32,564 bases of DNA, taken from positions 1-32,564 of IMG/VR virus record IMGVR_UViG_3300049486_000058. One strand, given 5' to 3'. This DNA is from a virus. Lineage: Duplodnaviria > Caudoviricetes. This document shows positions 1,742-32,563 of this stretch, one piece after another (the stretch's first letter is position 1; every line of letters starts with the position of its first letter). The position numbers and the translations under genes are program-made. Under the pieces are notes generated by a model. That model saw only the letters and a program-made list of their open reading frames with translations. It was not told where the DNA came from and did no database searches.

Positions 1742-2230
1742 ATGATTCAACTACCAACAACAGGCACACCGGAACAAAAACAAACGGTCTTTAAATTTCT
1801 AATACAAAGCAAATATGAGGGAAATGTAGACAAAATCATCAACGGGCCAGTCCGTGCTAAAGGTGGCATAGCAGGCAGATTTCAAGATGGTAAAAAAATA
1901 ATTTACTGCTGCTTTCAAGAATCAGATGATGGCTGGCAGGCAAAATATGAAGTAGTTGGCTTTGCAGAAGTAGTTGGCTTTGCAGAAGATGAACAAGATA
2001 CAGTTGACTCATTCACCGAGCAGCTGCGAAATGAAGCAGGGCAACTTACTGATGGATGGGTGGGACAAATAAGAAACCTACTAGATAATTCAGACGACCT
2101 AATCAACTTTCAAGAATCCTTAAGCAACTTCTACCCAAATTTGAGCATTGATGATTTCAGCAGCATCATGGGTGAAGCCATGACCGCATCAAGGTTAGCA
2201 GGTCAATTTGAGGCACAAGATGGTATTTGA
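1742..2230 (+). CDS. Head-module protein: unnamed N-terminal domain plus C-terminal helical region resembling the Mu gp29/DUF935 portal C-terminus
   Basis: Overlaps the MuF start; LLDNSDDLINFQESLSNFYPNLSIDDFSSIMGEAMTASRLAG resembles the portal tail that normally precedes MuF; N-terminus aligns with the MuF C-terminus. Confidence 0.65.
   Translation: MIQLPTTGTPEQKQTVFKFLIQSKYEGNVDKIINGPVRAKGGIAGRFQDGKKIIYCCFQESDDGWQAKYEVVGFAEVVGFAEDEQDTVDSFTEQLRNEAGQLTDGWVGQIRNLLDNSDDLINFQESLSNFYPNLSIDDFSSIMGEAMTASRLAGQFEAQDGI
1949..1984 (+). repeat. Perfect 18-bp tandem duplication (EVVGFA x2)
   Basis: GAAGTAGTTGGCTTTGCA occurs twice, in frame. Confidence 0.9.
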
Positions 2231-3188
2231 GTATAGAAGCTTACCATTTACCCAAGCTATTGATTTCTTCCGGGCTAAAGTCAACGTCCCCACAGCCAGC
2301 TATCAAGACGTGTGGGAACATGATATCGCCTTCGTGGTAGCAGGGGCAACAAAAGCCACCCTACTAGCAGATTTTCGTCAAGCAGTAGATGAAGCCATAG
2401 CCACCGGAAAGACCCGGCAAGAATTTCAGAAAGACTTTGATCGGATTGTAGCAACTCACGGCTGGGAGCATCGCGGTGGACGTGAATGGCGTGCCAATAT
2501 CATTTACGGAACAAACCTCAGAACTGCCTATGCTGCGGGACGCTGGGAGCAGATGACCGACCCAGACATACTGAGAATGCGTCCTTATTGGATGTATAAG
2601 CATGGTAATTCACCACATCCCAGATTACACCACTTAGCCCTAGATGGAAAAGTATTTCCAGCAGATGATCCTTGGTGGCAATACAACTTTCCCCCCAACG
2701 GCTGGGGCTGTAAGTGCTTGGCTGTTTCCCTCTCGATCAGAGATGTAGAGAGAATGGGTAAAGAGGTAGAAACCCCACCCCGCACAGCTACTTACACCTG
2801 GACTAACCCCATTGATGGTAAAAAGTACACCATCCTGAATCAACCAGATCCAGGCTGGAACTATACCCCAGGAAGGTCAACACCACAAGAAAAAGCCCAA
2901 ATCTTCCAGAACATCTTGCAAAATTTACCTGATGATCTACGCTTCCAAGTTGAGCAAGATGCTGTTCAACGTACCCAACAGGCGGGTAACATCTTTAAAC
3001 AGTCTCTATTTCAGTATCTAATTCAAAAACAATACCAAAAGCAAATCCAAGTTTTCGGTATTCCTGAAATGATCCAGGGAAATTTTACAGGCTATTTTCA
3101 AGACGGAAATATTACTTACTATGGACAAATTGAAGCTAGTGATAATAGTTGGGTAATTAATTATGGTCGGCTTGATTCTGAAAGTTGA
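2220..3188 (+). CDS. Phage minor head protein MuF (Mu gp30 family) with short C-terminal extension
   Basis: Motifs AFVVAGAT, TNLRTAYAAGRW, RPYWMY, PRLHHLALDG, DDPWW..NFPPNGWGCKC, PDPGWNYTPG; ATG at 2220 preferred over TTG at 2208. Confidence 0.92.
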   Translation: MVFEYRSLPFTQAIDFFRAKVNVPTASYQDVWEHDIAFVVAGATKATLLADFRQAVDEAIATGKTRQEFQKDFDRIVATHGWEHRGGREWRANIIYGTNLRTAYAAGRWEQMTDPDILRMRPYWMYKHGNSPHPRLHHLALDGKVFPADDPWWQYNFPPNGWGCKCLAVSLSIRDVERMGKEVETPPRTATYTWTNPIDGKKYTILNQPDPGWNYTPGRSTPQEKAQIFQNILQNLPDDLRFQVEQDAVQRTQQAGNIFKQSLFQYLIQKQYQKQIQVFGIPEMIQGNFTGYFQDGNITYYGQIEASDNSWVINYGRLDSES

Positions 3189-3612
3189 TGACAGTGAAAT
3201 TCAAGAGTATTTAACACAACTACAATCAAAAGTTCAGAATTTAGAACCAGCATATAAAATAATTGGCGAGTACATGATACTTGCCATTATAGACCGCTAC
3301 GATAAAGAAATCACAGCAGAAGGACAGCCTTGGGCTGCTTTAAGTGCAGCCACAATTAAGCAGAAGCAGCGCAAAGGTAAAATACAAAAAATCCTCCAAC
3401 AAGATGGGGACTTAAGGAGGACGATTATTTATCAAACATCACCTACCCAATTAGAAATCGGAACAAACCGTATATACGCAGCTATTCACCAATTTGGAGG
3501 ACAGGCAGGAAGGGGTAAAAAAGTAACTATTCAAGCCCGTCCATTTTTAGGAATTAGTGAAGCTGACAAATCCGAAATTGTCAAAATTTGTCAGGATTTT
3601 CTAATTACTTAG
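3163..3612 (+). CDS. Phage virion morphogenesis protein (Mu gpG / tail_S family)
   Basis: GQPWAALSAAT, ILQQDGDLRRTI, IGTNRIYAAIHQFGG, IQARPFLGIS. Confidence 0.92.
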   Translation: MVGLILKVDDSEIQEYLTQLQSKVQNLEPAYKIIGEYMILAIIDRYDKEITAEGQPWAALSAATIKQKQRKGKIQKILQQDGDLRRTIIYQTSPTQLEIGTNRIYAAIHQFGGQAGRGKKVTIQARPFLGISEADKSEIVKICQDFLIT

Positions 3613-4300
3613 TAAAATATGCGATTGTGTAGCTAACATTTGTGGCTGCACTTAATTCCATATTCAAAGCTTGGTTACTTCCAACCTTTAATTCCCTATT
3701 CACTGGGTAAGCCACTGGCTGGCCATCACCTATAACCCCGGCAAGAACAAATTCATCAATCTGAGAATTACCCGCTTTGAGAACCACATTCACGGGAGTA
3801 GCAGATTTATTTTGGATTCTTACGTATGAGATGTACGCTGTTGCTCCCCCAGCAGGTGCTGAGAAAATTGTGTTGTTTGTGTTGCTGGTAGTGTTAGAAA
3901 CGACATTAATAGTTCTATCAAGTAGCTCAAGAAGTCGTTTCTGTAGCTGCAACAGATTAAATGCACCAGTATTATTTGTAGCTGGAGCATCGTTTGGATT
4001 ACCAATACCAGATCCAGCATCACTAAATGTAACCTTGGTTTCCCAAGCAGTACCTGATTCATCATCTCGAAGATTTGATAACGTCTGAGACAGACTTTGA
4101 ATCTGGTATAAGAGAGAGCATAGAATCCCTAAGATTCCTATTGTGGGTGGGTCGTCAACCCCGTCGCTAATGGGAAATCCTAATTTCTCTAGAACATAAT
4201 TTTGAAACTCTGTTGGGGTTGGATTTCCACCACCACCACCAAAACTCACATCAGAAACCTTCAGATTAATACACAAATTACCTTCCGAATCAAAATTCAT
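3605..4300 (-). CDS. Hypothetical protein, probably virion-associated with a beta-rich C-terminus, antisense within the head operon
   Basis: 231-aa ORF fills the G-I gap; DAPATNNTGAFNLLQLQKRLL segment followed by a beta-sandwich-like C-terminus. Confidence 0.7.
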   Translation of the reverse strand: MNFDSEGNLCINLKVSDVSFGGGGGNPTPTEFQNYVLEKLGFPISDGVDDPPTIGILGILCSLLYQIQSLSQTLSNLRDDESGTAWETKVTFSDAGSGIGNPNDAPATNNTGAFNLLQLQKRLLELLDRTINVVSNTTSNTNNTIFSAPAGGATAYISYVRIQNKSATPVNVVLKAGNSQIDEFVLAGVIGDGQPVAYPVNRELKVGSNQALNMELSAATNVSYTIAYFTK

Positions 4301-4435
4301 AATTTTGGCTCATCTAGATTAGATTGCTCCAAATTAAACAAATAAATTTTCTTTTACTAGCCAGAAAAAAATCAGCATTACACCTGTAAAACTTCAGGCT
4401 TCCTATTCATGATGTGCCTTGCCACAATCATAATC

Positions 4436-5329
4436 ATGAAACCTCTACAAATCTTCAAAAAAGGCAAACACACGGCAATGAGCGGCGTTACTCTCAGTTT
4501 TTCTGAGAATGACGTGAGAACTTCCATCTCTGAGTACGACCCAGATGTGCATCAAGCACCCTTGGTAATTGGGCATCCAAAAACAGATGATCCTGCCTAC
4601 GGGTGGGTAAAATCGCTTTCCTATGTCGATGGCATCATGGAAGCACTGCCCGAACAGGTAGATCCTGCCTTTGCCAAGATGGTAAATGAAGGGAAATTTA
4701 AAAAGATTAGTGCGAGTTTTTACCCACCAGATAGCCCGAACAACCCCAAACCAGGAATTTACTATCTCAAACATGTGGGCTTTTTGGGGGCTGCTGCACC
4801 AGCAATCAAGGGTCTAAAGAGTGCCAGTTTTGCAGAAGATGAAGATTACATAGAAGTTGAATTAGATTTTTCTGAATTCTGTCAGTGTCAAACTAATAAA
4901 AATAAAAAGGGGAAAACATTGAATGAAGAAGAATTAAAAGCCCGTGAAGCTGCTCTTGCTGAACGAGAAGCCAAATTAAAGTTAGCAGAAGCAACCAGCT
5001 TTATTGAAGGGATAAGAACCAAAATCCCACCCATTTACAGAAATGGATTAATTGAATTTATAGCCAGTTTGGATGCCGAACAAGAAATCGAATTCTCAGA
5101 AGGAGGGAAAACCAAAAAACTACCCAGTGCCGCGTTCATTAAAGATTTACTTTCCCATCTTCCGAATTTAGTCGAATTCAAAGAAGTAGCAACCGGTCAA
5201 ACACCAGATCCGGAAACAGACCCGCACAAAATCGCCATCAAAGCACGGCAGTACGTAGCTGAACAAAAAAGCAAGGGAATAGAAATTTCCTACACCGAAG
5301 CCGTAAGTCACATTATAGGGGGTGATTAA
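4436..5329 (+). CDS. Mu-like prohead protease/scaffold (gpI-like)
   Basis: IFKKGKH, YDPDVHQAPLVIGHP, PAYGWV, KKISASFY, YYLKHVGFLGAAAPAIKGL; ATG at 4436 preferred over the ORF-track start 4409. Confidence 0.9.
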   Translation: MKPLQIFKKGKHTAMSGVTLSFSENDVRTSISEYDPDVHQAPLVIGHPKTDDPAYGWVKSLSYVDGIMEALPEQVDPAFAKMVNEGKFKKISASFYPPDSPNNPKPGIYYLKHVGFLGAAAPAIKGLKSASFAEDEDYIEVELDFSEFCQCQTNKNKKGKTLNEEELKAREAALAEREAKLKLAEATSFIEGIRTKIPPIYRNGLIEFIASLDAEQEIEFSEGGKTKKLPSAAFIKDLLSHLPNLVEFKEVATGQTPDPETDPHKIAIKARQYVAEQKSKGIEISYTEAVSHIIGGD

Positions 5330-5694
5330 TGGGAGTACGAAAACACGAATTAATTGACTGTGCCGTGCCTCAAGGAGCGATACCACCTTACAGAATTGTG
5401 AAATACGGCACGGCCGATGGGACAGTTACTCTAGCAATTGCTGTCACTGATAAATTGTGTGGAACTGCCAACAACTTAGGAGCAACGGCCACTGATAGGC
5501 GGGTTGACATTATTAAAGGTGGGATTGGTGAAGTGGAATTTGGTGGAAATGTAACTAGGGGAGACTGGCTGACCACTGACGACCAAGGACGGGCCATCAC
5601 TGCCAGCACCGGAAACCGCACTATTGGCATGGCTGAAGTCAGTGGCGTTTCTGGGGACATTGGCTCATATTTATTTGCACCAGGTAAAGCTTAG
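5329..5694 (+). CDS. Capsid cement/decoration protein (DUF2190-like)
   Basis: Lies between scaffold and capsid; VEFGGNVTRGDWLTTDDQGRAI motif. Confidence 0.82.
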   Translation: MGVRKHELIDCAVPQGAIPPYRIVKYGTADGTVTLAIAVTDKLCGTANNLGATATDRRVDIIKGGIGEVEFGGNVTRGDWLTTDDQGRAITASTGNRTIGMAEVSGVSGDIGSYLFAPGKA

Positions 5695-6642
5695 ATGAGT
5701 AATAAAGCACCATTTCCAGTAGATCCAGCACTTACAGCTATTGCCATAGCATACCGAAATAGTCGATTAATCGCCGATGAGGTCTTGCCAAGAATTCCTC
5801 CTTTACCACGACAAGAATTTCAGTGGTGGAAATTCGCGCTAGACGAAAATTTCCGAATACCCGACACCAAGGTCGGGCGAACCTCACGCCCCAATGAGGT
5901 CGAATTTTCAGCCAGCCAAGAATCTGAATCAACGGAAGACTATGCGCTAGATGATCCAATCCCGCAATCAGATATTGATAACGCTTCCGAAGGATATGAT
6001 CCTGTTGGGCGTGCTACTGAATCTTTAACTGATTTGATAATGCTAGACCGCGAAAAACGGTGTGCGGATATAGTCTTTGACGAAAACACTTATCCCCCAA
6101 CCCAAAGGGAAACATTGTCTGGGGCTGATCAATTTAGTGATTCAAGCTCAAAGCCAATTGTGAAGCTCATGAGGGTTATGGACAAAATGATAATGCGTCC
6201 AAATATCATGGTCATCGGTCGGTTGGCTTTTACGGATATGATCCAGAATCCGAGTATCGTCCGGGCATATCACCGCAATGACGGCGGAGATGGCACGGCT
6301 GATGCCAAATTTCTCGCAGATATATTAGGCTTAGAGCAAATACTAGTTGGGGAAGCATGGTTAGTAACCTCTAAGAAGGGGCAAGCCACCACCACTACCG
6401 CTAGAGTATGGGGTAAACACATCGCCTTGTTGCACCGCGACAAACTAGCCAATCCCACTACTGGCAGTGCAGGACGTGCCACTTTCGGGTTTACGGCACA
6501 ATGGGGACAAAAAGTGGCTGGGAAAATTCCAGATCCTCATATTGGTATGAGGGGCGGTATGCGAATTCGTAGCGGTGAATCGGTGAAAGAGTGCATTTGC
6601 GCTCCTGATTTTGGGTACTTTCTCAAGAATGTGGTGGCTTGA
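5695..6642 (+). CDS. Major capsid protein (HK97 fold, Phage_cap_E-like)
   Basis: FPVDPALTAIAIAYRN..IADEVLP, MLDREKRCA, MRPNIMVIGR, FGFTAQWG, APDFGYFLKNVV; size and position fit. Confidence 0.88.
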   Translation: MSNKAPFPVDPALTAIAIAYRNSRLIADEVLPRIPPLPRQEFQWWKFALDENFRIPDTKVGRTSRPNEVEFSASQESESTEDYALDDPIPQSDIDNASEGYDPVGRATESLTDLIMLDREKRCADIVFDENTYPPTQRETLSGADQFSDSSSKPIVKLMRVMDKMIMRPNIMVIGRLAFTDMIQNPSIVRAYHRNDGGDGTADAKFLADILGLEQILVGEAWLVTSKKGQATTTTARVWGKHIALLHRDKLANPTTGSAGRATFGFTAQWGQKVAGKIPDPHIGMRGGMRIRSGESVKECICAPDFGYFLKNVVA

Positions 6643-7082
6643 TCATGAACTATGCAAGCCAAGACGATATGGTTGATTTATTCGGCTACCAAGAGGTAGT
6701 CGAACTAACCAACTTAGAAAACCCAGGCGCTAACACCATTGATTCGGTAAGGCTTGAAAAAGCTTTAGATTACGCCAGTAGAGAGGTAGATAGTTATCTA
6801 CAGGCTACTCGATACCAACTGCCCTTAGCCGTTATCCCCCTGGTTCTTAGAAACAAAGTAGGTGATATTGCCAGATACCATCTTGACAGCTACCGAGCCA
6901 GAGAAGATGTCCGCCAACGCTACGAAGACGCAATTAAGTGGTTGCAAATGCTAGTGCAAGGAAAGGTCAATTTGGGATTAGACAAACTTACAGAACAGCA
7001 AGTTAATCCCAGTGGTGGCGTACATTATTACACCCAAAGCAGAGTATTCACTCAAGAATTTTTAAGCGATTATGCTGGCTGA
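6639..7082 (+). CDS. Head-tail adaptor, Mu gp36 / DUF1320 family
   Basis: YASQDDM, ASREVDSYL..RYQLPL, DIARYHL, RYEDAIKWL; likely ATG at 6645. Confidence 0.9.
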   Translation: MIMNYASQDDMVDLFGYQEVVELTNLENPGANTIDSVRLEKALDYASREVDSYLQATRYQLPLAVIPLVLRNKVGDIARYHLDSYRAREDVRQRYEDAIKWLQMLVQGKVNLGLDKLTEQQVNPSGGVHYYTQSRVFTQEFLSDYAG

Positions 7083-7503
7083 GATTGAACAGGCAATTGT
7101 AAATCAATTGCTGCAACCACTACAGAGTGATGGGGTGAGAGTAACTGGATTTCCCGACAACCCCAATGACTTGGGACGACCAGTGGGGATAGGACAAGTT
7201 CTTGTGGGATTCAAAAAAGAATCTCTATCCCCAGTTACATCGGGTGTTTTGACTGCACCCATTATTCAAACTCACACCTTCAAATTTGAAGTTAGTTTGC
7301 AGCTAAAAAACTTACGTTCTCACGGTGGGGCATATCCACTGATGGATAAAATCCGTAGTCTCTTGACTGGTTTTAAACCATTGGGAGAAGCGAGTAAACC
7401 TATGTACCAAAGTGAGGGGGGATTTGTCGATTTAAAAGAAGGTATTTGGTACTACTCGATGATTTTTGATGTACCTGCTACTTATTGTAAAAAATTAATT
7501 TAA
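7072..7503 (+). CDS. Mu gp37-like tail terminator/completion protein
   Basis: EIEQAIV, NLRSHGGAYPLMDKIRSLLTGFKP, GIWYYSMIF; follows gp36. Confidence 0.82.
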   Translation: MLAEIEQAIVNQLLQPLQSDGVRVTGFPDNPNDLGRPVGIGQVLVGFKKESLSPVTSGVLTAPIIQTHTFKFEVSLQLKNLRSHGGAYPLMDKIRSLLTGFKPLGEASKPMYQSEGGFVDLKEGIWYYSMIFDVPATYCKKLI

Positions 7504-7515
7504 TTAGGAGTAAAA

Positions 7516-8298
7516 ATGTTAAGTGGTGTTGGGCAATTAGGAATATTCACCTTAGACCAAGCAAGTAAAGCTTTAGGTCAAGATGTTTTCTTTCCTGGGC
7601 AATTTGTTGATTTTAGGTATGATGGTGAGTCTCAAAAAAAAGAAGCAAAGGCTTGGGTCAGTGGTGTTAAGAAAACTGTATCATCAGCAGTTGGAGAAGA
7701 AACATATACCCTGAAACTTGCATTTGAATATTTAGACTGGGCACATCTTGGGTTCGCCTATGACGAAATAGCCCAAGTTTCTCAAAATGTTGTTTTACCA
7801 ATATTTAAAACAGCAACAGTTCCCGTAAGTACAGCATACGAAATTGCTGATAATGATATTACTACTACTAACGGAAATAGTATTAAAGTTTATGTACCGA
7901 ATAGAGGTGCGTGGGGTGAAGCTGGATTTAGAAAGAGAACATCAAATAACCCATCTGCTAAAGAATTTAAAGTAGATACAACTGCTAAAAAGCTTATCTT
8001 CCATGCTTCTGACGCTGGTGCGACAATACAATACTCCATTAATCAAACTTATGCTTCAGTTGAGAGTATTGGCTATGAAGCAACAGCAGACTCATTTGGA
8101 AAATTAAGCTTCATTGGTAAAGGGTATGGCCCTGAATTTCCCAGTGGAATAATTATTTACTTACCTAGCATTACTAGGAGTTCTATTGTTTCCATGAATA
8201 CTGATGATGTGCCTAAGTTTGAAATAGAATTCTCCTGTAACGTTCCGGCAGGAAAACGCACCCCTCATCAATACTTCAACTTGGCCACAGCTACTTAA
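7516..8298 (+). CDS. Putative major tail (tube) protein
   Basis: Follows gp37; AGGAG ribosome-binding site; beta-rich 260-aa protein; assigned by synteny. Confidence 0.65.
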   Translation: MLSGVGQLGIFTLDQASKALGQDVFFPGQFVDFRYDGESQKKEAKAWVSGVKKTVSSAVGEETYTLKLAFEYLDWAHLGFAYDEIAQVSQNVVLPIFKTATVPVSTAYEIADNDITTTNGNSIKVYVPNRGAWGEAGFRKRTSNNPSAKEFKVDTTAKKLIFHASDAGATIQYSINQTYASVESIGYEATADSFGKLSFIGKGYGPEFPSGIIIYLPSITRSSIVSMNTDDVPKFEIEFSCNVPAGKRTPHQYFNLATAT

Positions 8299-8303
8299 GT
8301 TAA

Positions 8304-8786
8304 GTGAAGAAAATAACTCTGACATTGCCTGATTCAGTCCCGCCCGATTTGGTACTTTATCAAATACCAGATGGGGCAGATGATTTTGTGCAGAAATCAG
8401 TAATTGATGTAGTTCGCTCAGGATCACCCACGTTAGTGGGAGTATCTACCCTAGAAGGCAGTGGTAAGCAAAGTATTTTATTATCCTTTCAAGTCTACGT
8501 ATCGGAAGATGAAGCCCTGCTATTTGATGAGCTAAAAGCAAGGCAACAAAGCTTATATCAGTTAAAGCAAGATGGTAAAATCACTCTCAGGAATGAACGT
8601 TTTTATTTTTCAGCGAGTGAAGCGACGAAAAATCAGCGAGTGATTATAGATACTAGAAATACTACTTGGGGAACTAAACACTATATTTCATACCCCGTAC
8701 TTCTCAGAATCCCAGAAAATCATACTCAGCAACAAGCTGACGACCTTTGGCTGCTTTCGTTTGACGCTTTGGAATTAAGCAGTTAG
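8304..8786 (+). CDS. Hypothetical tail-module protein
   Basis: 160-aa ORF with GTG start; its TAG stop overlaps the first base of CRISPR repeat 1. Confidence 0.7.
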   Translation: MKKITLTLPDSVPPDLVLYQIPDGADDFVQKSVIDVVRSGSPTLVGVSTLEGSGKQSILLSFQVYVSEDEALLFDELKARQQSLYQLKQDGKITLRNERFYFSASEATKNQRVIIDTRNTTWGTKHYISYPVLLRIPENHTQQQADDLWLLSFDALELSS

Positions 8787-9039
8787 TTTCAATCCCTGAT
8801 AGGGGTTAGATGAAATTGCAACCTGCCTGCTAATGATTTCATTCAATTTTTCTTCTAGTTTCAATCCCTGATAGGGGTTAGATGAAATTGCAACCTGCTA
8901 AAGTCAAGGTTTCAGCTATCAGGGTCTTATTGTTTCAATCCCTGATAGGGGTTAGATGAAATTGCAACATGATTTTGACTAATTCTTTTGCAGCATCTAT
9001 AGGTTTCAATCCCTGATAGGGGTTAGATGAAATTGCAAC
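8786..9039 (-). CRISPR. CRISPR mini-array, 4 repeats and 3 spacers, cyanobacterial type I-D-like repeat, no cas genes in the window
   Basis: Identical 37-bp repeats GTTTCAATCCCTGATAGGGGTTAGATGAAATTGCAAC at 8786-8822, 8858-8894, 8932-8968 and 9003-9039; unique spacers of 35, 37 and 34 bp; reverse complement has a CCCT-ATC-AGGG hairpin and ends in ATTGAAAC (typical Cas6 8-nt handle), so the minus strand is inferred. Confidence 0.96.
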
Positions 9040-9055
9040 TGCACTCTAACAGATA

Positions 9056-9322
9056 CTAACCCCGTGAGTCAAGGAACGCCCCGCCCAAATTGCGTGAGAT
9101 GGCAGGAACGACATCTCCCAAACGAATCCCAGAATTACTGATACTCTTAGCCCTCATCACCCCGCCATCAGGAAGATTAATCTTCTGCTGACCTGTAGCA
9201 GGGTCATAATCTGCCATCGTTCCTAATACTGATGATGCAGTCGATCGTTGCTGCCTTCTGTTGATCTGGGTGTGGCGGTAGTCGATTTCTGATTGTGCTT
9301 GTATGAGTCTTATATTTACCAT
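9056..9322 (-). CDS. Small tail-tip protein, last gene of the minus-strand late block
   Basis: 88 aa, overlaps 9316..10257; DYDPATGQQKINLPDGG resembles EYHQETGRYKVIYPNGG in the preceding gene. Confidence 0.75.
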   Translation of the reverse strand: MVNIRLIQAQSEIDYRHTQINRRQQRSTASSVLGTMADYDPATGQQKINLPDGGVMRAKSISNSGIRLGDVVPAISRNLGGAFLDSRG

Positions 9323-10257: not shown

Positions 10258-10931
10258 AATACCACCCCATATTGGAAGATTTTCCCAGTGCTGTCTATGG
10301 TCTGGGTAAAAACGAAATCTTCATACCCTGCCAGAGTTCCTGCCGAATTTCCTCTTGTTAACATACCTCCACTGATAACCAGAAAGTAACGATAAGTTAT
10401 CGAACCCCCAGTCGGAATAAAGGGAATATTTACAGGGCCAATAGAAACTTGCTTTGTGTTGTAATTAATTAGAGCAGAAGGAAAAGTTATAGCTTGTCTG
10501 CTAGTACCGTAGTAATTAGGTACTTCTTTTCTAACCCATACATCCAAATCATCAATATCGCTTAATGGCTGTTCTGTGATGGTGGTTACTCCAGACCCGG
10601 AACTGGTTATATCAATTGCTGTTCCTGTTTTTGTCTGAGGATTGTAATTAGCCTCAGTACACAGCTTAAAATCATTTCCTGCTACATTAATAACCCGATA
10701 CTGTGTACCAATAGCCAATCCTCCGGGTACACCTCCACCAACATTAGCTGCAAAAACTCTACAGCCATTAACAAAATCATGACCAGTAGCAGTAATAGTA
10801 TCAGTTGAAATATTAACGGAAGTAACATTTACTGATGTGGGATTATCCAAAATTAACAAAGCATACCACCCAGTAGCTGAGTAAATTTCATTTAAGGCTC
10901 TTTCTTTTTCTTTCAATGATTTTACAAGCAT
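10254..10931 (-). CDS. Putative tail/baseplate structural protein
   Basis: TDTITATGHDFVNGCRV...GGLAIGTQYRVINVAGNDFKL is a beta module typical of phage tail proteins. Confidence 0.72.
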   Translation of the reverse strand: MLVKSLKEKERALNEIYSATGWYALLILDNPTSVNVTSVNISTDTITATGHDFVNGCRVFAANVGGGVPGGLAIGTQYRVINVAGNDFKLCTEANYNPQTKTGTAIDITSSGSGVTTITEQPLSDIDDLDVWVRKEVPNYYGTSRQAITFPSALINYNTKQVSIGPVNIPFIPTGGSITYRYFLVISGGMLTRGNSAGTLAGYEDFVFTQTIDSTGKIFQYGVVL

Positions 10932-11617
10932 AAATTATTAACCTCCAAATCATAAAAAATATAAAATAAAGCTAAATACTTCCTGAATTGCCACTTCCAG
11001 TAAAGTTGATAAGCCTTTAATAATCCAATTTCTATAACTAAAAAATCCCAAAGATACTGACTATGGCTTTGTTCATCACTGGATATTTTCTCTAATACTT
11101 TCTGCAAATGCCCTTGTGTACATTGAGTTAGAGCATGGTAAACATCATGCCCTATACTTTCCCCAACACACATAAATGCTAAAGCATCAACTAAATCATA
11201 ATCTTCTGCTTTTAAGTTATTGAAGAACTTTCTAAAAAAGTAGTATTTCAGACTTATGCCAGTAGTATGTATCCATTGCCTTTTAGGAAGTTGTGTGTCG
11301 CTTTCATAAACAAAATAGTTAGGATTATAAACAATAATTCCATGTGAGATATGCTCTCGTTTTCTTTGGGGTCGGTTTATACCATCAACCACTGACCAAA
11401 GCATCTTAGCGTGCTTTCCTTCTTGTTCTGCGTGCTGCTCTAATTCTTGAGAAAGTTTTTCTTTTCCAAAATCTTTGGCTTGAATAGATTTTTTCAAACA
11501 AAAATCTTGAAAGCCGCATTCAAGTTTACCCAAAAGCCGAATTAACTTCTCAATATCTGCCTTTTGAATAACTAAATGATTCACCAACAATTTAATAATA
11601 ATCTTTTGCAGCATCAA
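10922..11617 (-). CDS. Ferritin-like di-iron carboxylate protein
   Basis: Two ExxH motifs (HAEQEGKH, ISSDEQSH), each preceded about 30 aa upstream by a Glu (KLECG, VGESIG); overlaps both neighbours. Confidence 0.8.
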   Translation of the reverse strand: MMLQKIIIKLLVNHLVIQKADIEKLIRLLGKLECGFQDFCLKKSIQAKDFGKEKLSQELEQHAEQEGKHAKMLWSVVDGINRPQRKREHISHGIIVYNPNYFVYESDTQLPKRQWIHTTGISLKYYFFRKFFNNLKAEDYDLVDALAFMCVGESIGHDVYHALTQCTQGHLQKVLEKISSDEQSHSQYLWDFLVIEIGLLKAYQLYWKWQFRKYLALFYIFYDLEVNNLCL

Positions 11618-18248: not shown

Positions 18249-18844
18249 TACTGCCCCCTAGCCCGTTCCATATCTTGTCTAGCGCGTTTTTGCCATTCGC
18301 GCTGCTGTGCTTTCTCCCTGGTTTTGGGGTCAGCTTGCTGTATTTGTTTTGCTCTAGCTTCTACAGTTCCCAGTAACTGTTCAGCAGGGACATTTTCAGC
18401 CAGTTCTAAAGCCTTTGCTATATCTTGGGTATGTGTCGAAATTGCGGCTAAAACTTCCTCATAAGTGGCACTTTTAGCACCATGATTTTTATCTGATTTT
18501 GGAAAATTGAAATCTACTAAAATACCCTCAAATACTTTCCCCTCTATCTCATAAGGAAAAAGCATTTGAATCATCATATTGATATCAATCCAGTGAACTG
18601 AAACGCCACACAATTCTAAGCACCTGTGGCACAGGTATCGGAAATATTTATCTTTGTCATAAAGTTCTTGTAAAGATAATTCTTCTTCTTTTATATCTTT
18701 TAAATATTTTTGAATCTGAGATAATCTCTCTCTGAATTCCTCACGATTAGCCAAGGAACATCCACGAATAAGCCGATATTCTCCAGAAACGTCTTCAAAT
18801 TCTAAACAATCAAATTTTTCAGTATCAATATGATTAATTTTCAT
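18248..18844 (-). CDS. Putative tail assembly chaperone
   Basis: 198 aa immediately upstream of and coupled (TAATG) to the tape measure gene; synteny only. Confidence 0.6.
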   Translation of the reverse strand: MKINHIDTEKFDCLEFEDVSGEYRLIRGCSLANREEFRERLSQIQKYLKDIKEEELSLQELYDKDKYFRYLCHRCLELCGVSVHWIDINMMIQMLFPYEIEGKVFEGILVDFNFPKSDKNHGAKSATYEEVLAAISTHTQDIAKALELAENVPAEQLLGTVEARAKQIQQADPKTREKAQQREWQKRARQDMERARGQ

Positions 18845-18919
18845 GCTAAAGATTAAATCTTTAGCACTTCATAACATCTAATAAGTGTCAATATCTATAC
18901 TGAAAAAATGCACCATGTA

Positions 18920-20233
18920 CTAAAAATTCACCCAATCGCCTAACTCAAAACCTACCCGCCTGCCTCCAATAGACTCAAACTCAACAGGTGCTGTCCCGTT
19001 TGATGCAGCATATAGCCCCAGGAATGCAGCCCAAGCCCGATCGGCGTGTTCATTACTGTCAGCCTCTACATCAAAGCGAACATTCCCTAACGCCGTCGTT
19101 ACCTTCCTTAAACTGTGTAGATCGGAGCGCAAAGCTTGATTACCAAGTGGAATCCTCACCTTTCTATCCTCAAACTTCTGCTTACCAATCGTCGCTAGTA
19201 CAAGCTTATTACTAGGGGTAAAAAGTACACCCTCAGTTCTCAATTGACCATAGCGACGTTGTGCATCCTCCACAGGCTTTTCACCTAAACCCGTCTGATC
19301 TATAGCCAATCTTACAACTCGATACCTTTGCATCAACTCATCTAAAACCCGATCCTGTTCACGGAAAGGACAATTTTTAAGTTCTGCTAATTCCCTACAC
19401 CAAAACACATCACCCAACTTTTCCCAAACCCAGGCTATCCACAAGTGTTTGCGTCGTGCAATATCATTGCCAATATAACAAGGTCCACCCATGTATAAAT
19501 CGGGAATCCCAGCCCCATCATCCTCAACCGCATTGATCAAATCATAGGACAGCCAAGCAGAAGCCTCATCCAGCCACTTCAACTCATATTCTTGCGCCCA
19601 AGCATCCTCATCATTGAGCGCCCGCCGCAATTCTTCAATATCACGCGGTAAACCCTCCTCAACCGCTTGATAAATATCGACCCGATGCTTACTCCAAATC
19701 GGGTCATTAGAAGTCATTAGATCATAAAATTTGTTCCCCTTGCCGTTGGGAGTTGAAGTAATTCTTAGGTCATGCCCCGCCGAAATGACGGGAAACAACG
19801 CCGTCCAAATTTTGCGGCTATCTTTGTGAAACGCAAACTCATCCAGAAACACACTGGCACTAAAACCCCGTGCCGTATCGGGATTAGCAGGTAAAGCCGT
19901 AATTCTGATGCCATTTGGTAACTCAACCTCTAAAGCCCGATACTTCCCCTCATCCCCCTCCCATTCATAATCCAGAGACTCAAAAGCTAAAGAATAAGCC
20001 TTGCAATGGGGTTTAATCCCCTCTTCCATCGCCTCCTTAGCTTGGCGTTCCCCCCTAGAGAGAATCACCCATCTTTTACGTCTTCCCTCTACCAAAGCCT
20101 CAAAGCAGCTATCAACAATTTCTAGGGTTGTGGTGAAAGTCTTCCCGATCTGCCTTGCCCACATCCCAATCTTGAATCGGCTCTTATCTAAGAGCCATCT
20201 TTTTTGATAGCCATATAAACCAACAGCCGCCAT
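18920..20233 (-). CDS. terL: Terminase large subunit (Mu gp28-like)
   Basis: YQKRW, ARQIGKT (Walker A), ARGFSASVFLDEFAFH (Walker B), ITSTPNG, IGNDIAR, IDQTGLG, HADRAWA. Confidence 0.95.
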   Translation of the reverse strand: MAAVGLYGYQKRWLLDKSRFKIGMWARQIGKTFTTTLEIVDSCFEALVEGRRKRWVILSRGERQAKEAMEEGIKPHCKAYSLAFESLDYEWEGDEGKYRALEVELPNGIRITALPANPDTARGFSASVFLDEFAFHKDSRKIWTALFPVISAGHDLRITSTPNGKGNKFYDLMTSNDPIWSKHRVDIYQAVEEGLPRDIEELRRALNDEDAWAQEYELKWLDEASAWLSYDLINAVEDDGAGIPDLYMGGPCYIGNDIARRKHLWIAWVWEKLGDVFWCRELAELKNCPFREQDRVLDELMQRYRVVRLAIDQTGLGEKPVEDAQRRYGQLRTEGVLFTPSNKLVLATIGKQKFEDRKVRIPLGNQALRSDLHSLRKVTTALGNVRFDVEADSNEHADRAWAAFLGLYAASNGTAPVEFESIGGRRVGFELGDWVNF

Positions 20234-20817
20234 TATAGAATCCCGTAAACGTCTTCTCTCACAATCCGCAAGGTTTCTTTATCAATTTTTCTACCTAAGG
20301 TTTCTTTATCAATTTTTCTACCTGCGGTTTCTTCACCATCTTTTTCTGCCTTAGCCGCTTCTGCTTCAAGCTGCTTAAACTTCTCTTCCAACCGTTTCCG
20401 AGCATCAGATTGATATTTTTTCAGATGCACAGACGACTTATTTAAAGCCGCAATCATATTACCTATGTAGGTAATAGCAGACGCTGGTATTTCCGCTTCC
20501 TCTATATTAATTTTTAACAAAGCACGAAGAGCTTTATTGTAAACTAGCCGCGTCACACCCTCAGCTAAAGCGGCTTCATCATCTTTACAAACCTCAATTA
20601 ATGCTTTACACAGTTCTGCTGATTCCCGCTCTTCGTTTATTTCTTGTTGGTACTTTACCCCATAGCGTTGCAAAGAAGATTTCGCAATCTCATAGCCCCA
20701 TTCAGCCAATTTAGCGACTAAATTATCGTAATCAGCAAAAGCATGAACAAGCAAAAATTTATTAACTTGCGAACGAATATCTTCAGGCAACCGCATTACC
20801 TTTGACCGTTGTGGCAT
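20233..20817 (-). CDS. DUF3486 / Mu gp27-like protein (putative terminase small subunit)
   Basis: RSKVMRLPEDIR, GYEIAKSSLQRY, C-terminal VYGI; coupled to terL. Confidence 0.85.
   Translation of the reverse strand: MPQRSKVMRLPEDIRSQVNKFLLVHAFADYDNLVAKLAEWGYEIAKSSLQRYGVKYQQEINEERESAELCKALIEVCKDDEAALAEGVTRLVYNKALRALLKINIEEAEIPASAITYIGNMIAALNKSSVHLKKYQSDARKRLEEKFKQLEAEAAKAEKDGEETAGRKIDKETLGRKIDKETLRIVREDVYGIL
20270..20323 (-). repeat. Perfect 27-bp tandem duplication (GRKIDKETL x2)
   Basis: AAGGTTTCTTTATCAATTTTTCTACCT at 20270-20296 and 20297-20323. Confidence 0.9.
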
Positions 20818-21202
20818 TATAATTTTGTAAAATCTTAAGAATTTGCCTTTCAGTTAAGCTATACTTTTTACTCAATTCAGGTATTGTCATTTTCATTTTA
20901 TCAGCAACTATATCCTGATTTCTCTTTGCCTTTTTGTAACGAGAACCAGTTGCAATTTCTAAATACGTCCCGCCATATTGTTCAATTAGGAAATTGAAAG
21001 CGTCATTCCCTAGTTGGGATAGTAAATGATTATCACTTATCCTTTTAGGAATATATATTCTAGAACCTCCCACAAGGTCTATGAGGGTTTCAGTTGCGAC
21101 ATCGCCAATATGCTTGGCGATTTCCCTTAATCGCTTTGACCAATTATCATTATTAGAGCAAATTTCTCGCGTCATTTCAGTATACAAGCTGAGATAGTAC
21201 AA
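20783..21202 (-). CDS. Mor/C family transcription activator
   Basis: VGGSRIYIPK, YGGTYLEI, RNQDI, IPELSKKYSLTERQILKIL. Confidence 0.88.
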   Translation of the reverse strand: MYYLSLYTEMTREICSNNDNWSKRLREIAKHIGDVATETLIDLVGGSRIYIPKRISDNHLLSQLGNDAFNFLIEQYGGTYLEIATGSRYKKAKRNQDIVADKMKMTIPELSKKYSLTERQILKILQNYNATTVKGNAVA

Positions 21203-21264
21203 GCTTAGTACATCAAATTAATGAATTCTATGCGGTATTATTTCAGGAGTAGTTAAGTTAAATT

Positions 21265-21283
21265 AAAAAACCCCTTGCGGGGT
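21265..21283 (-). terminator. Intrinsic terminator ending the early operon
   Basis: Minus strand reads ACCCC-GCAA-GGGG followed by T6. Confidence 0.7.
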
Positions 21284-21313
21284 CAACTAAGACTAAGTAT
21301 TTTTTACTATTCA

Positions 21314-21661
21314 TCAACCCATCAAGATTTCAGCCCTACTTTCCCAATCCACAGGTAGTTTAAAAATCTTCACAGCTGCTTCTTCATCCGCTCCGATCAA
21401 CTGAGTAGTCCAAACCGTTCCAACTTCTGGGTAAGTTACCGGAAAAACTGAACTATAGTCACCGCAGCTTTCAGCCATCGCTCTATCAATATCCGTAAAA
21501 TCCGGGTGGTTGTGCGGCATGTAAGCGATTCTAGTCTTACTTAAAGCAACCAATCCTAGACCGTATTTTGCATACATCTTTTGAGCAAAAACTACTAGGC
21601 AGATATCAACAAACTTTCCGTAGTTTGGATCTGCGAGTTTTCTTCTTTTGGCTTCTCCCAT
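21314..21661 (-). CDS. Hypothetical protein with MGEAKRRK N-terminus
   Basis: 115 aa; GAGG ribosome-binding site; N-terminal motif familiar from cyanobacterial proteins. Confidence 0.75.
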   Translation of the reverse strand: MGEAKRRKLADPNYGKFVDICLVVFAQKMYAKYGLGLVALSKTRIAYMPHNHPDFTDIDRAMAESCGDYSSVFPVTYPEVGTVWTTQLIGADEEAAVKIFKLPVDWESRAEILMG

Positions 21662-21846
21662 AGTTCACCTCTACTAATAATCACGACTTCAGAAAACGGA
21701 ATCTGACCCCACCCGTACTCCAACCGCACCCACCCATCCCCTATCTCGTAAATCCTCTCTCCCTGGAGATTCCACCAATCAGGGGCGTATTTCCAAGTAC
21801 ATCTGTCCCCCAACCTCAACTCGATTTGTGGGGTCTTCTTTTCCAT
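21595..21846 (-). CDS. Hypothetical protein (small beta-barrel-like)
   Basis: 83 aa, overlaps neighbours within the early operon. Confidence 0.55.
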   Translation of the reverse strand: MEKKTPQIELRLGDRCTWKYAPDWWNLQGERIYEIGDGWVRLEYGWGQIPFSEVVIISRGELWEKPKEENSQIQTTESLLISA

Positions 21847-22223
21847 GCCTTCAAAGCCTCAATCAACTTTGCCTTTTGCCTTGTAGTCAACCATTCCAGC
21901 CGTTCAACTTGCGTTTGTCTCTTAATCCATCTATTCAAAGAATCTCGACTACCACTCCCCGTCTTACCCTGTTCAAACAACTCCTGCCAGAGTTGAAAAA
22001 TCAAACTATCTTGCTTAGAAATTTTACCCTGAACATTTCCGTAAGCTTCCAGAGTAGAAATTACACGCCTCATTTCTCCTACGGCTAAATCACTAGCCGT
22101 TTCTACTTGAAAATACTCGCTCAACAGAAAGCGATAATTTTTATCACTCATCTGAATCTGCTTCTTTAAAATATGAATTCGTGCAAGCAGATTATTTCTT
22201 TCTTCACACATTAAATCACTCAT
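21816..22223 (-). CDS. gemA: GemA / Mu gp16 (DUF1018) family protein
   Basis: LLARIHILKKQIQMSDKNYRFLL...SDL; SLNRWIKRQTQVERLEWL...KLIEALKAW. Confidence 0.88.
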   Translation of the reverse strand: MSDLMCEERNNLLARIHILKKQIQMSDKNYRFLLSEYFQVETASDLAVGEMRRVISTLEAYGNVQGKISKQDSLIFQLWQELFEQGKTGSGSRDSLNRWIKRQTQVERLEWLTTRQKAKLIEALKAWKRRPHKSS

Positions 22224-24271: not shown

Positions 24272-24997
24272 CTAACCTGCCTTTGCTGATAAGAAGAATT
24301 TTTTATGTTGACCCCATTGGGAAGCATTGACCGTTTCCCATTGTTGGGTTTTTGCAAACATCTCAACCCGTGCTAATGCAACAATCATCAAACCCATACC
24401 GCCCTGACTTTCCTTGTGGATTTTAGAAAGTAGGTCATCAGATACCCCAACGTCGCAGACTGTATCTGCCAAAATCCGGGCATCTTGCATATCAAGGGGC
24501 TGAAACTCGACAAACTGGCTGATGCGGCGTGACAGTTGTTGACGATGAGCTAATTTTTTCTCAATGCCGGACATCCCCACCAGAATCACGGGAATGCCTG
24601 CCATATCGTGTATATCTCTGAGGGTTTCTAGCATTCGCAAATCCCGCAGTAGATAGTCGCATTCATCAATAAATAAAGGGCGGCGGGTGGATTCAAACCA
24701 CTCGCACACTGATTTAAGAGTCTTAGCATTCCTCCACTGAGGAGAAATCCCCAAATCAGTCGCTATAGCCCCCAGCATGGAGTTTAGAGTCCATGCCGCG
24801 TTGGCTCTGAGGAAAACTCCGTTAACTTTGGGTTGTTCGATCAACCATTTGATGGATCTAGTTTTGCCAGATCCAGTTCCACCACTGACCAACCCCATCA
24901 CTGGGATACCTAAGCCTAAATTTGCTGTATCTGACAGTGAAAAGTAAGCGCTGGACAGTTGTAATAAATTTTGAACCCTGGCTAATTCCTTTCGCAT
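24272..24997 (-). CDS. Transposition AAA+ ATPase (MuB-like)
   Basis: GGTGSGKT (Walker A), LFIDECDYL (Walker B), ETLRDIHD..GIPVILVGM, QLSRRI; AAGGAG ribosome-binding site. Confidence 0.92.
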   Translation of the reverse strand: MRKELARVQNLLQLSSAYFSLSDTANLGLGIPVMGLVSGGTGSGKTRSIKWLIEQPKVNGVFLRANAAWTLNSMLGAIATDLGISPQWRNAKTLKSVCEWFESTRRPLFIDECDYLLRDLRMLETLRDIHDMAGIPVILVGMSGIEKKLAHRQQLSRRISQFVEFQPLDMQDARILADTVCDVGVSDDLLSKIHKESQGGMGLMIVALARVEMFAKTQQWETVNASQWGQHKKFFLSAKAG

Positions 24998-25057
24998 ATA
25001 ATCTCCTTAGTTGCAACCGCTTGGCAGCAGTTAAATCAGTGCTGCCAAGGGTATTTT

Positions 25058-25354
25058 TTATCTGCCTCTCCCCTTGCGTAGCGGTTTAGGGTTGAGTAAA
25101 AGCTTGATACGACTTACCAATGCTTCCAGGTTACTGATCTGCGAATTTAAGTAACCTAAGCTGCGGTCTTGGATATAGTTGAGATAACCTTTTATTTGTT
25201 TTCTCTCACTGGTGGTAAGCTGTTTTTTAATAGCTTCCCACTGGGAGAGTTTCATCAATTCTTCCAGTTCCGTATTGGTGTAGTCATAGTTGTATTGAGC
25301 TTTTACCCATTCGCATTGCGCTTTATATCGGGCTAGTGCCGGTTCATCCATCAA
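25058..25354 (-). CDS. Hypothetical protein
   Basis: 98 aa, coupled to 25351..25533. Confidence 0.65.
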   Translation of the reverse strand: MMDEPALARYKAQCEWVKAQYNYDYTNTELEELMKLSQWEAIKKQLTTSERKQIKGYLNYIQDRSLGYLNSQISNLEALVSRIKLLLNPKPLRKGRGR

Positions 25355-25533
25355 TCAGCCCTCATAATAAAAAAATCGTTACGTCCAACAGTGTCTCTAA
25401 AAATTCGCTGCCAAAATTGGGCTTGTTCATGAGTAAGAATTATTGCTTGTGATTTCCTACTCCATACGCAGGGTTTACGCACTCCTGCGAAATAACTGCC
25501 ATTAGCTTTATCAAAAATTACCCATTTACTCAT
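25351..25533 (-). CDS. Hypothetical protein
   Basis: 60 aa; AAGGAG ribosome-binding site. Confidence 0.6.
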   Translation of the reverse strand: MSKWVIFDKANGSYFAGVRKPCVWSRKSQAIILTHEQAQFWQRIFRDTVGRNDFFIMRAD

Positions 25534-25535
25534 GA

Positions 25536-25922
25536 CTAATCTCCTTGAATTTCAGCGTACCAAGGTAATTCAAAACCATATTTGATTTTGAATCCTAAAA
25601 ATTGAAAGAATCGGATAGAGAACTTTTCCAGATAGAGTTGTAATTCGTAGCCAATGTAAAGATATCTGGTTGACCACTTTAATAACTGACACCACCAAGG
25701 AATGTTTTTTACAATTGCTATTGAATCAGCGTAAATTTTAACAAGCTCGATGGTTTCGGGTTCGTGTTCTAAGCTTTCTACTAAATCCCAATATTCGGGA
25801 TGATTCTTGAAAGCCTTTTCCCAAACATCGTAAGAGTTCAATTCATCGGCATTTAGCCAGTCTAAATACCAGAAGCCGAACTCTAAAGGTAAGTTTTTGA
25901 TTTTTGGTGTTTCTTCTAACAT
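25536..25922 (-). CDS. Hypothetical aromatic-rich protein
   Basis: 128-aa ORF in operon orientation. Confidence 0.6.
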   Translation of the reverse strand: MLEETPKIKNLPLEFGFWYLDWLNADELNSYDVWEKAFKNHPEYWDLVESLEHEPETIELVKIYADSIAIVKNIPWWCQLLKWSTRYLYIGYELQLYLEKFSIRFFQFLGFKIKYGFELPWYAEIQGD

Positions 25923-25937
25923 AATTACAGCTATTTT

Positions 25938-26171
25938 TTAAGGGCAAATAGTTTCAGCAATTAATGGTTTTGGTAAACCTAAAGTAGAGGCTTTGGACAT
26001 TAAATTATCTAGTATTTCTTGCAGTGAATTACCTTCTAAAAAGCCTTCTAATTTTCCTGAATGGTATAGATAGGCTTTATATTTTGGGCAATCTTTGAAA
26101 GCACCATGAAAATACAAGTAATACCAAATAATCTCTGTTCCGGTTGAATCAACATATTTCCTTTTGGTCAT
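25938..26171 (-). CDS. Hypothetical protein
   Basis: 77 aa; AAGGAG upstream; first gene after the transposase. Confidence 0.55.
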   Translation of the reverse strand: MTKRKYVDSTGTEIIWYYLYFHGAFKDCPKYKAYLYHSGKLEGFLEGNSLQEILDNLMSKASTLGLPKPLIAETICP

Positions 26172-26231
26172 TTTTCTGTCTTAATTAACTCCTTTAGCTA
26201 GGTTGAATTAGCCCCAACAAGACTTAAACTT

Positions 26232-29994: not shown

Positions 29995-30069
29995 AGAAAT
30001 TAGATTGTGCTTCTGTCCTTAGATATATATTTTACAGAATTTTACAGGCTTCTTGGACAAGAATGAGTC

Positions 30070-30179
30070 AGTTCAAACTTAGTTCAAGCTTAGTTCAAAC
30101 TTAGTTCAAGCTTAGTTCAAACTTAGTTCAAGCTTAGTTCAAACTTAGTTCAAACTTAGTTCAAACTTGGTTCAAACTT
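30070..30179. repeat. Intergenic tandem array, 10 x 11 bp (AGTTCAARCTT)
   Basis: Units at 30070, 30081 and so on to 30169; A/G variants alternate in the first six units; the last unit starts with G. Confidence 0.95.
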
Positions 30180-30484
30180 AATTGAGAATAAATCTCATTT
30201 AGTAATTGCACACAACCCTAATAACTCTAAAGTCCCCCCTTTTATCCTGAATAACTCTCTATATCTTCAGGATTTAACAGGTAGTATTCAATACCTGTTA
30301 GCTCAGATAATTTAAACTTTATTCGCTTAGTCAAGGTTTCGTCAACCTTATCTTCAAAAATTACCATCATCATCTACATAAGCCTCAATAATAACCGTAG
30401 TGCCATCACGGTAAACAGTCTCTCATGGCTAACCGGCAGATAACAACATAAAGACTCTAGCATCATTAAGTGACATAATTAATT

Positions 30485-31522: not shown

Positions 31523-32563
31523 TTATTTGCTCCTAGTTTTTTTAGCGTTTTTTCTGTTATCGAATTCCATTTGTACAGAATCTGGCAATTGTTTAAAACC
31601 AAATTTCTCATAGGAAGCTTTTCGACTTTCATATCTGCTATTTTCCTCCTTTTCATCATAAGGAGTGCAGGTAAAAAGTCTGTTAGATACGGGGGAATTG
31701 GCATAACGCAGCCAAGCCCTTGTCATATCTCTCAGCTCTTTTGATGGTACACCTTCTCCAGCAGAGGTTTTATTAACATTATATTCACCATCGACCGTAA
31801 AATATACTTCTCCTTTCGATGAAACAAACATCTCAACCCTATCACCAGAATACAGTACGGCCGGTTTGTTTTTAAGTTTACGCAAATTAGGTTGATATTT
31901 AGTATCTAGGAACTCCTCCAAACTTGAAAATCCGTTTCTAATTTTGAGCAGCCTATCTAGTTGCTCATCAGTTAATTCTATCTGATCATTCTCAGCTTTT
32001 ATACCTATGGCCTTTAATTCATCCTTAGAAGCATCTTGATTACCTAATATTTCCGAGCCTTCAGGAGCTATTATCTTCACTTTCTGCTGTTCAACCGGCT
32101 TAGGCTGTTCAACTGGTTTGGGCTGTTCAACTGGCTTGGGCTGCTCAACTGGCTTGGGCTGCTCAACTGGCTTGGGCTGCTCAACTGGCTTGGGCTGTTC
32201 AACCGGCTTGGGCTGTTCAACTGGTTTGGGCTGTTCAACTGGCTTGGGCTGCTCAACTGGCTTGGGCTGCTCAACTGGCTTGGGCTGTTCAACCGGCTTG
32301 GGCTGTTCAACCGGTTTATTATCTAACTTTGCTGCCAAAGTTGCAGTAGCCTGACTAGCTACTGGTGGCTGCTCCTTCCTACATTTCTTATTAGGAGAAA
32401 TACAGCTACCACCGCAAGGAGTCCCTTTTGAGCAATTTTTCCCCGTTGAATAACTTAATTCCTCACTAAAATTAGCGACATCATTAGGATTTAATAACTT
32501 ATATCCAATCTCTTGAGTATCAAAATCAAAATTATATCTTTTAATTAAATTACCATTAACTCT
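31523..32563 (-). CDS. Modular protein, 5'-truncated by the window: Cys4 motif, PVEQPK repeat linker, GNAT-like C-terminal domain
   Basis: The frame stays open from 32338 to the window edge (RVNGNLIKRYNFDFDTQEIGYKLLNPNDVANFSEELSYSTGKNCSKGTPCGGSCISPNKKCRKEQPP), so the ORF-track start is an artefact; C-terminal RKASYEKFGFKQ. Confidence 0.8.
   Translation of the reverse strand, partial: RVNGNLIKRYNFDFDTQEIGYKLLNPNDVANFSEELSYSTGKNCSKGTPCGGSCISPNKKCRKEQPPVASQATATLAAKLDNKPVEQPKPVEQPKPVEQPKPVEQPKPVEQPKPVEQPKPVEQPKPVEQPKPVEQPKPVEQPKPVEQPKPVEQPKPVEQQKVKIIAPEGSEILGNQDASKDELKAIGIKAENDQIELTDEQLDRLLKIRNGFSSLEEFLDTKYQPNLRKLKNKPAVLYSGDRVEMFVSSKGEVYFTVDGEYNVNKTSAGEGVPSKELRDMTRAWLRYANSPVSNRLFTCTPYDEKEENSRYESRKASYEKFGFKQLPDSVQMEFDNRKNAKKTRSK
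32081..32314 (-). repeat. Coding tandem repeat, 13 x 18 bp (12 PVEQPK plus one PVEQQK)
   Basis: GGCTTGGGCTGYTCAACY-type units with mostly synonymous variation. Confidence 0.95.

Follow-up and report, generated by a model that had tools for sequence, protein, structure and literature searches.

The stretch of viral DNA analysed here (32,564 nt, hereafter the window) carries four copies of a 37-nt repeat that are 100% identical within it and start at positions 8786, 8858, 8932 and 9003; they enclose three unique spacers of 35 nt (8823–8857), 37 nt (8895–8931) and 34 nt (8969–9002), exactly as an earlier note on this DNA had written, and the next-best repeat-like place in the window reaches 22/37 identities. 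All four copies pass the Rfam model RF01318 (CRISPR-DR5) on the minus strand, scoring 41.3 bits against a gathering threshold of 40, a 4-bp core hairpin is predicted for them, and the spacer lengths are regular, falling within the range of host arrays (31–43 nt, median 35; n = 70 spacers). In the predicted direction of transcription (minus strand, with the orientation taken from the position of the leader in related arrays), the DR5/type I-D-like repeat at 9003–9039 comes first and is followed by the promoter-proximal 34-nt spacer, an identical repeat (8932–8968), the 37-nt spacer, another identical repeat (8858–8894), the 35-nt spacer and a last repeat (8786–8822) that is intact and lacks a degenerate trailer; its base 8786 doubles as the G of TAG, the stop codon of the neighbouring ORF 8304–8786.

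The statement of the earlier note that the window has no cas gene was borne out by the ORF searches, which found none among 45 ORFs with PHROGs and Pfam, 28 with PADLOC and 30 with NCBIfam, the sole Cas-labelled match being a weak one to Cas11e (PADLOC, E 0.005), in an ORF that also matches a phage family of PHROGs; this holds for the window record, which is possibly incomplete, as the N-terminal part of the portal is missing from it. The same four databases gave no match to a TniQ-like adaptor. With its four repeats, the array differs from the single repeat that defines solitary-repeat RNA anti-CRISPRs, and its three spacers exceed the limit of one or two that applies to mini-arrays in the strict sense (PMC11656645); we therefore group it with short arrays of the type found in Nostoc cyanophage N-1.

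The array is placed at the junction of two converging gene runs, the plus-strand head genes and the minus-strand tail genes. Its left neighbour, ORF 8304–8786 (plus strand, 160 aa), is the last gene of the head/neck run, with 58–64% homologs in four related proviruses (L001–L004) and no family match in PHROGs, Pfam, PADLOC or NCBIfam; its right neighbour, ORF 9056–9322 (minus strand, 88 aa), is the last gene of the tail run. The remaining gene content, assigned by PHROGs and Pfam, agrees with the earlier description of a Mu-like transposable phage. The head/neck genes at 1742–8298 (plus strand) comprise a C-terminal piece of the portal, Mu F, neck, protease, capsid, gp36 and gp37, and ORF 7516–8298 is, judged by position only, likely the tail tube. 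On the minus strand, 18920–22223 encodes the large and small terminase subunits (the latter Mu gp27), the Mor activator and GemA, and 24272–28382 holds the transposition genes, namely a MuB-like AAA ATPase (24272–24997; PF13401 and phrog_296) and a DDE transposase (26232–28382) with Mu DNA-binding, integrase-core and Mu C-terminal domains (PF02316, PF00665, PF09299). The transposase is 32–39% identical to that of the nearest cultured phages among the matches listed. The closest named capsid relative comes from Trichormus variabilis (69%), with only four other clusters at 69% or above; because of this relative, the host is likely a Nostocales-type cyanobacterium, as the earlier note had proposed.

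In all four proviruses that have both flanking genes (L002 and L003 being nearly the same phage), these genes overlap by 12 bp and the array is absent. Because the related proviruses have overlapping flanking genes without an array, we regard the latter as an insertion in the lineage of the window phage. The insertion changed the final codons of the left gene, the stop codon of which now ends on the first base of a repeat, and left 16 nt between the array and the right gene; both flanking ORFs stay open. The whole records of five related proviruses (G001–G005) and locus L010 contain no repeat above 22/37, and searches for further array-bearing relatives returned none: scans with the tail genes gave five viral and four genome loci (one of the latter a true relative), whereas alignment of the flanking genes recovered the same four proviruses only, with nothing among 503 candidate metagenome stretches. 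Mu genes like those of the window were also absent, within the flanks fetched, near 13 viral loci selected by an I-D-type repeat tail, a pattern that samples viral arrays of that kind incompletely. The array is seen in one genome only and so gives no sign of selection or spacer turnover.

Repeats invite misassembly, and the earlier note had itself raised the prospect that phage arms had been joined to a host array by the assembler. In the public sequencing run X1, the left-arm contig enters the first repeat copy by 28 nt and the right-arm contig the last one by 30 nt, both without differences. Depths in this run are 196.4 for the repeat, 45.6 and 40.2 for the arms and 32.2, 38.9 and 63.8 for the spacer contigs; the resulting repeat/arm ratio of 4.3–4.9 fits some four copies of the repeat in each phage genome and does not fit a long host array, which would give far more. 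A chimera would fit the fact that no single X1 contig spans the whole array, so that the order of the spacers rests on the window assembly, and X1, the only run holding the array, may be the window's own source and so is not independent; in runs X2–X4, scattered short pieces of the flanks were covered and the array was not. The clean joins of both arms to the repeats, the depths and the empty sites in relatives nevertheless argue against such an artefact, which we consider very improbable. As side observations on the same run, the contig of the 8969–9002 spacer is deeper (64) than those of the other two spacers (32 and 39) and the arms (40–46), and the depth of the repeat lies slightly above four copies, perhaps reflecting an extra unit in some genomes, or noise. 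The depth bins also imply an unlisted 32-nt contig, 80–90% like the repeat and with a depth near 700, which would represent an abundant related, non-identical repeat in the sample, possibly the host's own.

Comparison of the repeat with host arrays, a check suggested by the earlier note, yielded no identical 37-nt copy in the genome, viral and metagenome collections, the nearest being 34/37. Of 401 genomes in the order of G006, 5 have repeats within this distance (three mismatches); each of the five encodes Cas10d, and none has a homolog of the capsid of the window phage. The repeat is moreover 33/37 identical to arrays located beside a complete type I-D operon on a Nostoc plasmid. Together with the DR5 match, these I-D-linked repeats and the Cas10d genes support both the orientation and the type I-D-like character that had been assigned to the repeat, and type I-D is our best call from sequence. 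Low in its stem, the repeat has a C:A mismatch, a feature described in Anabaena as marking repeats of the type III-D group (bioRxiv 2020.04.14.041012); lower-stem mismatches also occur in the I-D-linked repeats of L009, and the idea that the mismatch is a phage-specific change was rejected, since the same variant is found in viral loci L041, L042, L045 and L048. The repeat of N-1 is reported to differ from the nearest repeat of its host at six positions (bioRxiv 2020.04.14.041012). Separately, the viral contigs L042 and L045 have I-D arrays (18 and 6 repeats, respectively) with host-type leaders, and share the leader as well as one nearly identical spacer.

The 16-nt gap between the right gene and the array (9040–9055, minus strand) contains no type I-D leader. 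In eight related arrays, including those of N-1 and Nostoc phage YongM, a common leader motif precedes the first repeat by about 40 nt; these arrays score 24–202 when aligned to each other, whereas alignment of the 220 nt upstream of the window array to these eight leaders scores 16–21, with a mean of 19 for shuffles. Type I-D leaders are described as 202–220 bp long, with conserved motifs, and as promoting spacer uptake (PMC10212523); because such a leader is absent, the array is likely unable to gain spacers easily. In place of the leader lies a predicted sigma70-type promoter (9043–9072, minus strand) consisting of TTGACT, an 18-nt spacing and a TG-extended TAGAGT, with the predicted −35 box within the last codons of ORF 9056–9322, where the relatives differ, and the −10 box in the 16-nt gap. 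The site ends 3 nt before the first repeat and is found at none of three empty sites examined. Only 1.3% of window positions have a site of this kind ending at most 12 nt upstream of them (0.06% when the TG is required), a chance computed after the site had been seen, and the number of promoters predicted over an 800-bp region is not above expectation (3 found versus 1.6 ± 1.6). Boxes resembling a promoter, identified by eye, also adjoin the first repeat of other viral mini-arrays, L041 and L048 among them, so that this layout is not unique to the window. The array is, as far as can be judged from these predictions, likely expressed; among RNA contigs, none covers it. In four of the viral loci (L041:9920-10090, L048:9850-10020, L043 and L046), promoter-like boxes are followed immediately by one or two degenerate repeats of I-D type; these loci are in their own right candidate regulatory mini-arrays or RNA anti-CRISPRs.

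Searches of viral and cyanobacterial collections, also suggested by the earlier note, found a target for none of the three spacers. Within the window itself, the best spacer matches cover 20–22 of 34–37 positions, and in the whole records of G001–G005 and L010 they cover only 19–23. When the array was compared by blastn with 50,697 phage and 72,556 plasmid records, E values up to 10 being allowed, no spacer target emerged: the cyanobacterial matches are to the repeat, and those on the spacer side (Bacillus, Clostridium, Enterococcus and Staphylococcus phages and phage NCTB) have E values of 0.3–4 and were rejected as chance. In IMG/VR, wobble-degenerate pieces of 26–29 nt gave one match for the 35-nt spacer, at locus L014, which was rejected as a target (25/35, 24% GC), and none for the 37-nt and 34-nt spacers; an exact 19-mer of the 37-nt spacer gave none. 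Spacer pieces of 25–26 nt with up to three mismatches match none of 251 genomes of a candidate host family, for each spacer, and no protospacer-bearing contig appeared among the matches listed for runs X1–X4, a weak negative since short matches may be filtered. The earlier note had taken the open reading frames of the spacers as consistent with protospacers in coding genes. The frames exist; however, all three spacers are equally open on that strand in 53% of shuffles, and the frames therefore carry no information. Compared with 1008 open stretches from viral loci, related ones and others, the spacer peptides likewise did not beat shuffles (36–93 of 100 being as good).

A PAM-plus-seed scan was run on the window phage, on two relatives, on one I-D operon and on four regions upstream of cas10d, none of them from the true host; 3 of its 27 tests had at most 1 in 30 shuffles as good, about what is expected for that number, with runs of 8–9 nt and at most 19/35 identities overall. 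The databases searched hold few phages of such hosts, and the lack of a target is little evidence against function, since the spacers of N-1 are likewise reported to have no known target (PMC4916379; bioRxiv 2020.04.14.041012). The 37-nt spacer is predicted to pair with the repeat over 9 nt (reached by 1.4% of shuffles, with a hairpin probability near 0); this was considered and rejected as a special feature, the same loss of the hairpin being seen in 19 of 70 host repeat-spacer units.

What best accounts for these observations, with a probability that we put at about 0.6, is that the phage supplies crRNAs which the host Cas6 and Cascade load and turn against rival phages or other mobile DNA, a use of the host machinery that had already been put forward for N-1. 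The scenario starts from features given by sequence comparison, that is, insertion of the array at a site empty in relatives, its repeat family and the absence of cas genes and leader, and its further steps would follow N-1 and the viral mini-arrays. Transcription of the array, on the minus strand, would start at the compact promoter beside the first repeat and also arise by read-through from the tail operon; a host type I-D Cas6 would, as in N-1, cut the repeats 8 nt from their 3′ end to release three crRNAs with an 8-nt 5′ tag; and host Cascade with Cas3′ would destroy matching DNA next to a GTN PAM, the PAM described for type I-D (PMC10212523), so that the lysogen or infected cell would be protected. 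Without a leader, the phage array would not easily gain spacers and may be a frozen collection that came from a host array. Intact identical repeats of the DR5/I-D family, the core hairpin, spacers of host-range length, the empty site and the promoter-like site all favour this reading. Against it stand the lack of a spacer target, even in five related proviruses, when most mini-array spacers are reported to target related viruses, and the lack of an identical host repeat, when mini-arrays are described as host-identical (both PMC11656645). The absence of a capsid homolog from the five genomes with the nearest repeat, the occurrence of the array in a single genome and a regional promoter count no higher than chance likewise count against it.

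The same silence of the target searches, the missing leader and the single occurrence of the array, absent from all four relatives, would also be expected of an unselected passenger, namely a piece of host array captured recently by illegitimate recombination at a site made harmless by the two gene 3′ ends that meet there; its repeats would then be identical only because the capture is recent, and orphan arrays are described as common in filamentous cyanobacteria (bioRxiv 2020.04.14.041012). Such an accident would hardly be expected to start and end on whole repeats with only 16 nt extra, to keep both flanking genes open, or to bring a promoter-like site, absent from the empty sites, exactly to the start of the array, and we hold it to be unlikely. 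Counter-defence, in which decoy RNAs tie up host Cas6 and Cascade or imperfect guides repress host cas or other promoters, draws on the absence of a cleavage target and on the position at the end of a late operon, which would give many copies during lysis; inhibitors derived from phage repeats and regulatory mini-arrays have been described (PMC11656645; bioRxiv 2023.03.03.530964). These described elements are single repeats or units of one or two spacers, often with degenerate repeats, whereas the window array consists of four perfect repeats with three normal-length spacers, and the 27 PAM-plus-seed tests, on regions from other than the true host, gave no convincing match; we judge this possibility improbable.

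That the carrier is transposable and encodes both a transposase and an AAA ATPase invites the further suggestion of RNA-guided transposition in trans, with phage crRNAs in host I-D Cascade steering the Mu transposase and ATPase. CRISPR-associated transposons (CASTs) are reported within Mu transposons (types I-A and V-F) and, for type I-D, in cyanobacterial Tn7-like elements (PMC11656645), and a complete Mu-like phage that provides only guide RNAs would be a step toward Mu-type CASTs. The window has neither a cas gene nor a match to a TniQ-like adaptor, its array lies 15 kb from the transposition genes, the relatives have transposases 62–81% identical to that of the window yet no array, and the spacer pieces match none of the candidate host family genomes, all of which makes guided transposition highly unlikely. 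CASTs of Mu- and Tn7-like transposons resemble the window in combining transposase, AAA ATPase and CRISPR array on one element (PMC11656645); beside its transposase, a CAST has cas effector genes of its own and a targeting adaptor, which were not found in the window, and the window, unlike CASTs, has phage head and tail genes.

The closest precedent for phage-supplied crRNAs is Nostoc cyanophage N-1 (KU234532), which is described as having five 37-bp DR5 repeats, four spacers, no cas genes and a transcribed array (PMC4916379), with a repeat that is cut by the type I-D Cas6 of its host (bioRxiv 10.1101/2020.04.14.041012). N-1 is a phage of filamentous cyanobacteria, as the window phage likely is, and both have cas-less arrays of 37-nt DR5/I-D repeats with few spacers (four in N-1, three in the window); their repeats are identical at 26–28 of 37 positions, and targets were found for neither array. 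N-1, however, is described as lytic, and its array has retained a host-type leader with its motif about 40 nt upstream, whereas the window phage is Mu-like and its array is leaderless, has a compact promoter-like site that overlaps a tail-operon gene, and has empty-site relatives. I-D-type repeats also occur in YongM (31/37 identical) and in Microcystis phages MaMV-CH01, CH02, DL01 and DL02 (29/37); unlike the window, these phages are not Mu-like and their mini-arrays have one spacer each, that of YongM with the leader motif. The 3-kb stretches fetched around them contain no cas gene, and the mini-arrays are unannotated in the two records that were opened. In MaMV-CH01 (PP681321.1; L006:1500-1665), the single spacer of the two-repeat mini-array is almost the complement of the promoter-like region upstream of the mini-array itself, a site without an annotated feature, and self-repression is possible. 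Viral mini-arrays in general are likewise cas-less and are described as having one or two spacers rather than three, host-type repeats identical to those of the host and targets in related viruses (PMC11656645), and arrays of Clostridioides difficile prophages, as cited in PMC4916379, share with the window their location in the morphogenesis module.

The window thus contains a real, phage-borne, cas-less and type I-D-like array of the N-1 kind in a new carrier. The novelty claimed by the earlier note needs to be divided accordingly: a cas-less DR5 array had already been published for N-1 (PMC4916379), and what stands is the Mu-like cyanophage as its carrier. No Mu-like cyanophage with a CRISPR array appeared in titles and abstract openings among the matches listed, a search with subscription literature mostly uncovered, and the supplementary tables on viral mini-arrays of bioRxiv 2023.03.03.530964 could include Mu-like carriers. 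The missing host-type leader and a compact predicted promoter at the first repeat are further new aspects. If the phage does supply crRNAs, the borrowing of host type I-D CRISPR by phages would extend from lytic cyanophages to a temperate, transposable one. The relatives with overlapping genes and no array, set beside a leaderless array with a promoter-like site, form a before-and-after pair, and a site partly built from the last codons of a gene would show how a virus can switch on captured host immunity. No new mechanism is opened and, as no spacer target was found, function is only inferred; a target in a host gene or at phage insertion sites would raise the significance of the array.

Several minor observations concern the rest of the phage genome. 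Mu-like phages end in TG...CA with variable host DNA. The 7551-nt contig of the left arm in run X1 would, by its length, end at about window position 1263, a branch point between ORFs 892–1251 and 1413–1637 that is possibly a genome end or an inversion junction. The N-terminal part of the portal is absent after the terminase in the window and present there in two of the related proviruses, G001 having a portal of 422 aa and G002 a 1376-aa portal fusion; the regions of the window concerned are 18844–18920, 1742–2230, 30248–30422 and 31523–32563, and the middle of the G002 fusion matches window 32381–32563 and a broken piece at 30248–30422. In G002 the head-tail block runs the other way round, which hints at large inversions in this phage group. 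A ferritin-like (rubrerythrin) ORF at 10922–11617, within the tail run, is found in G001 and was not found in G002. Finally, a non-coding 11-bp tandem repeat occupies 30048–30201, and a coding 18-bp repeat with a six-residue unit lies at 32050–32355, in ORF 31523–32563.
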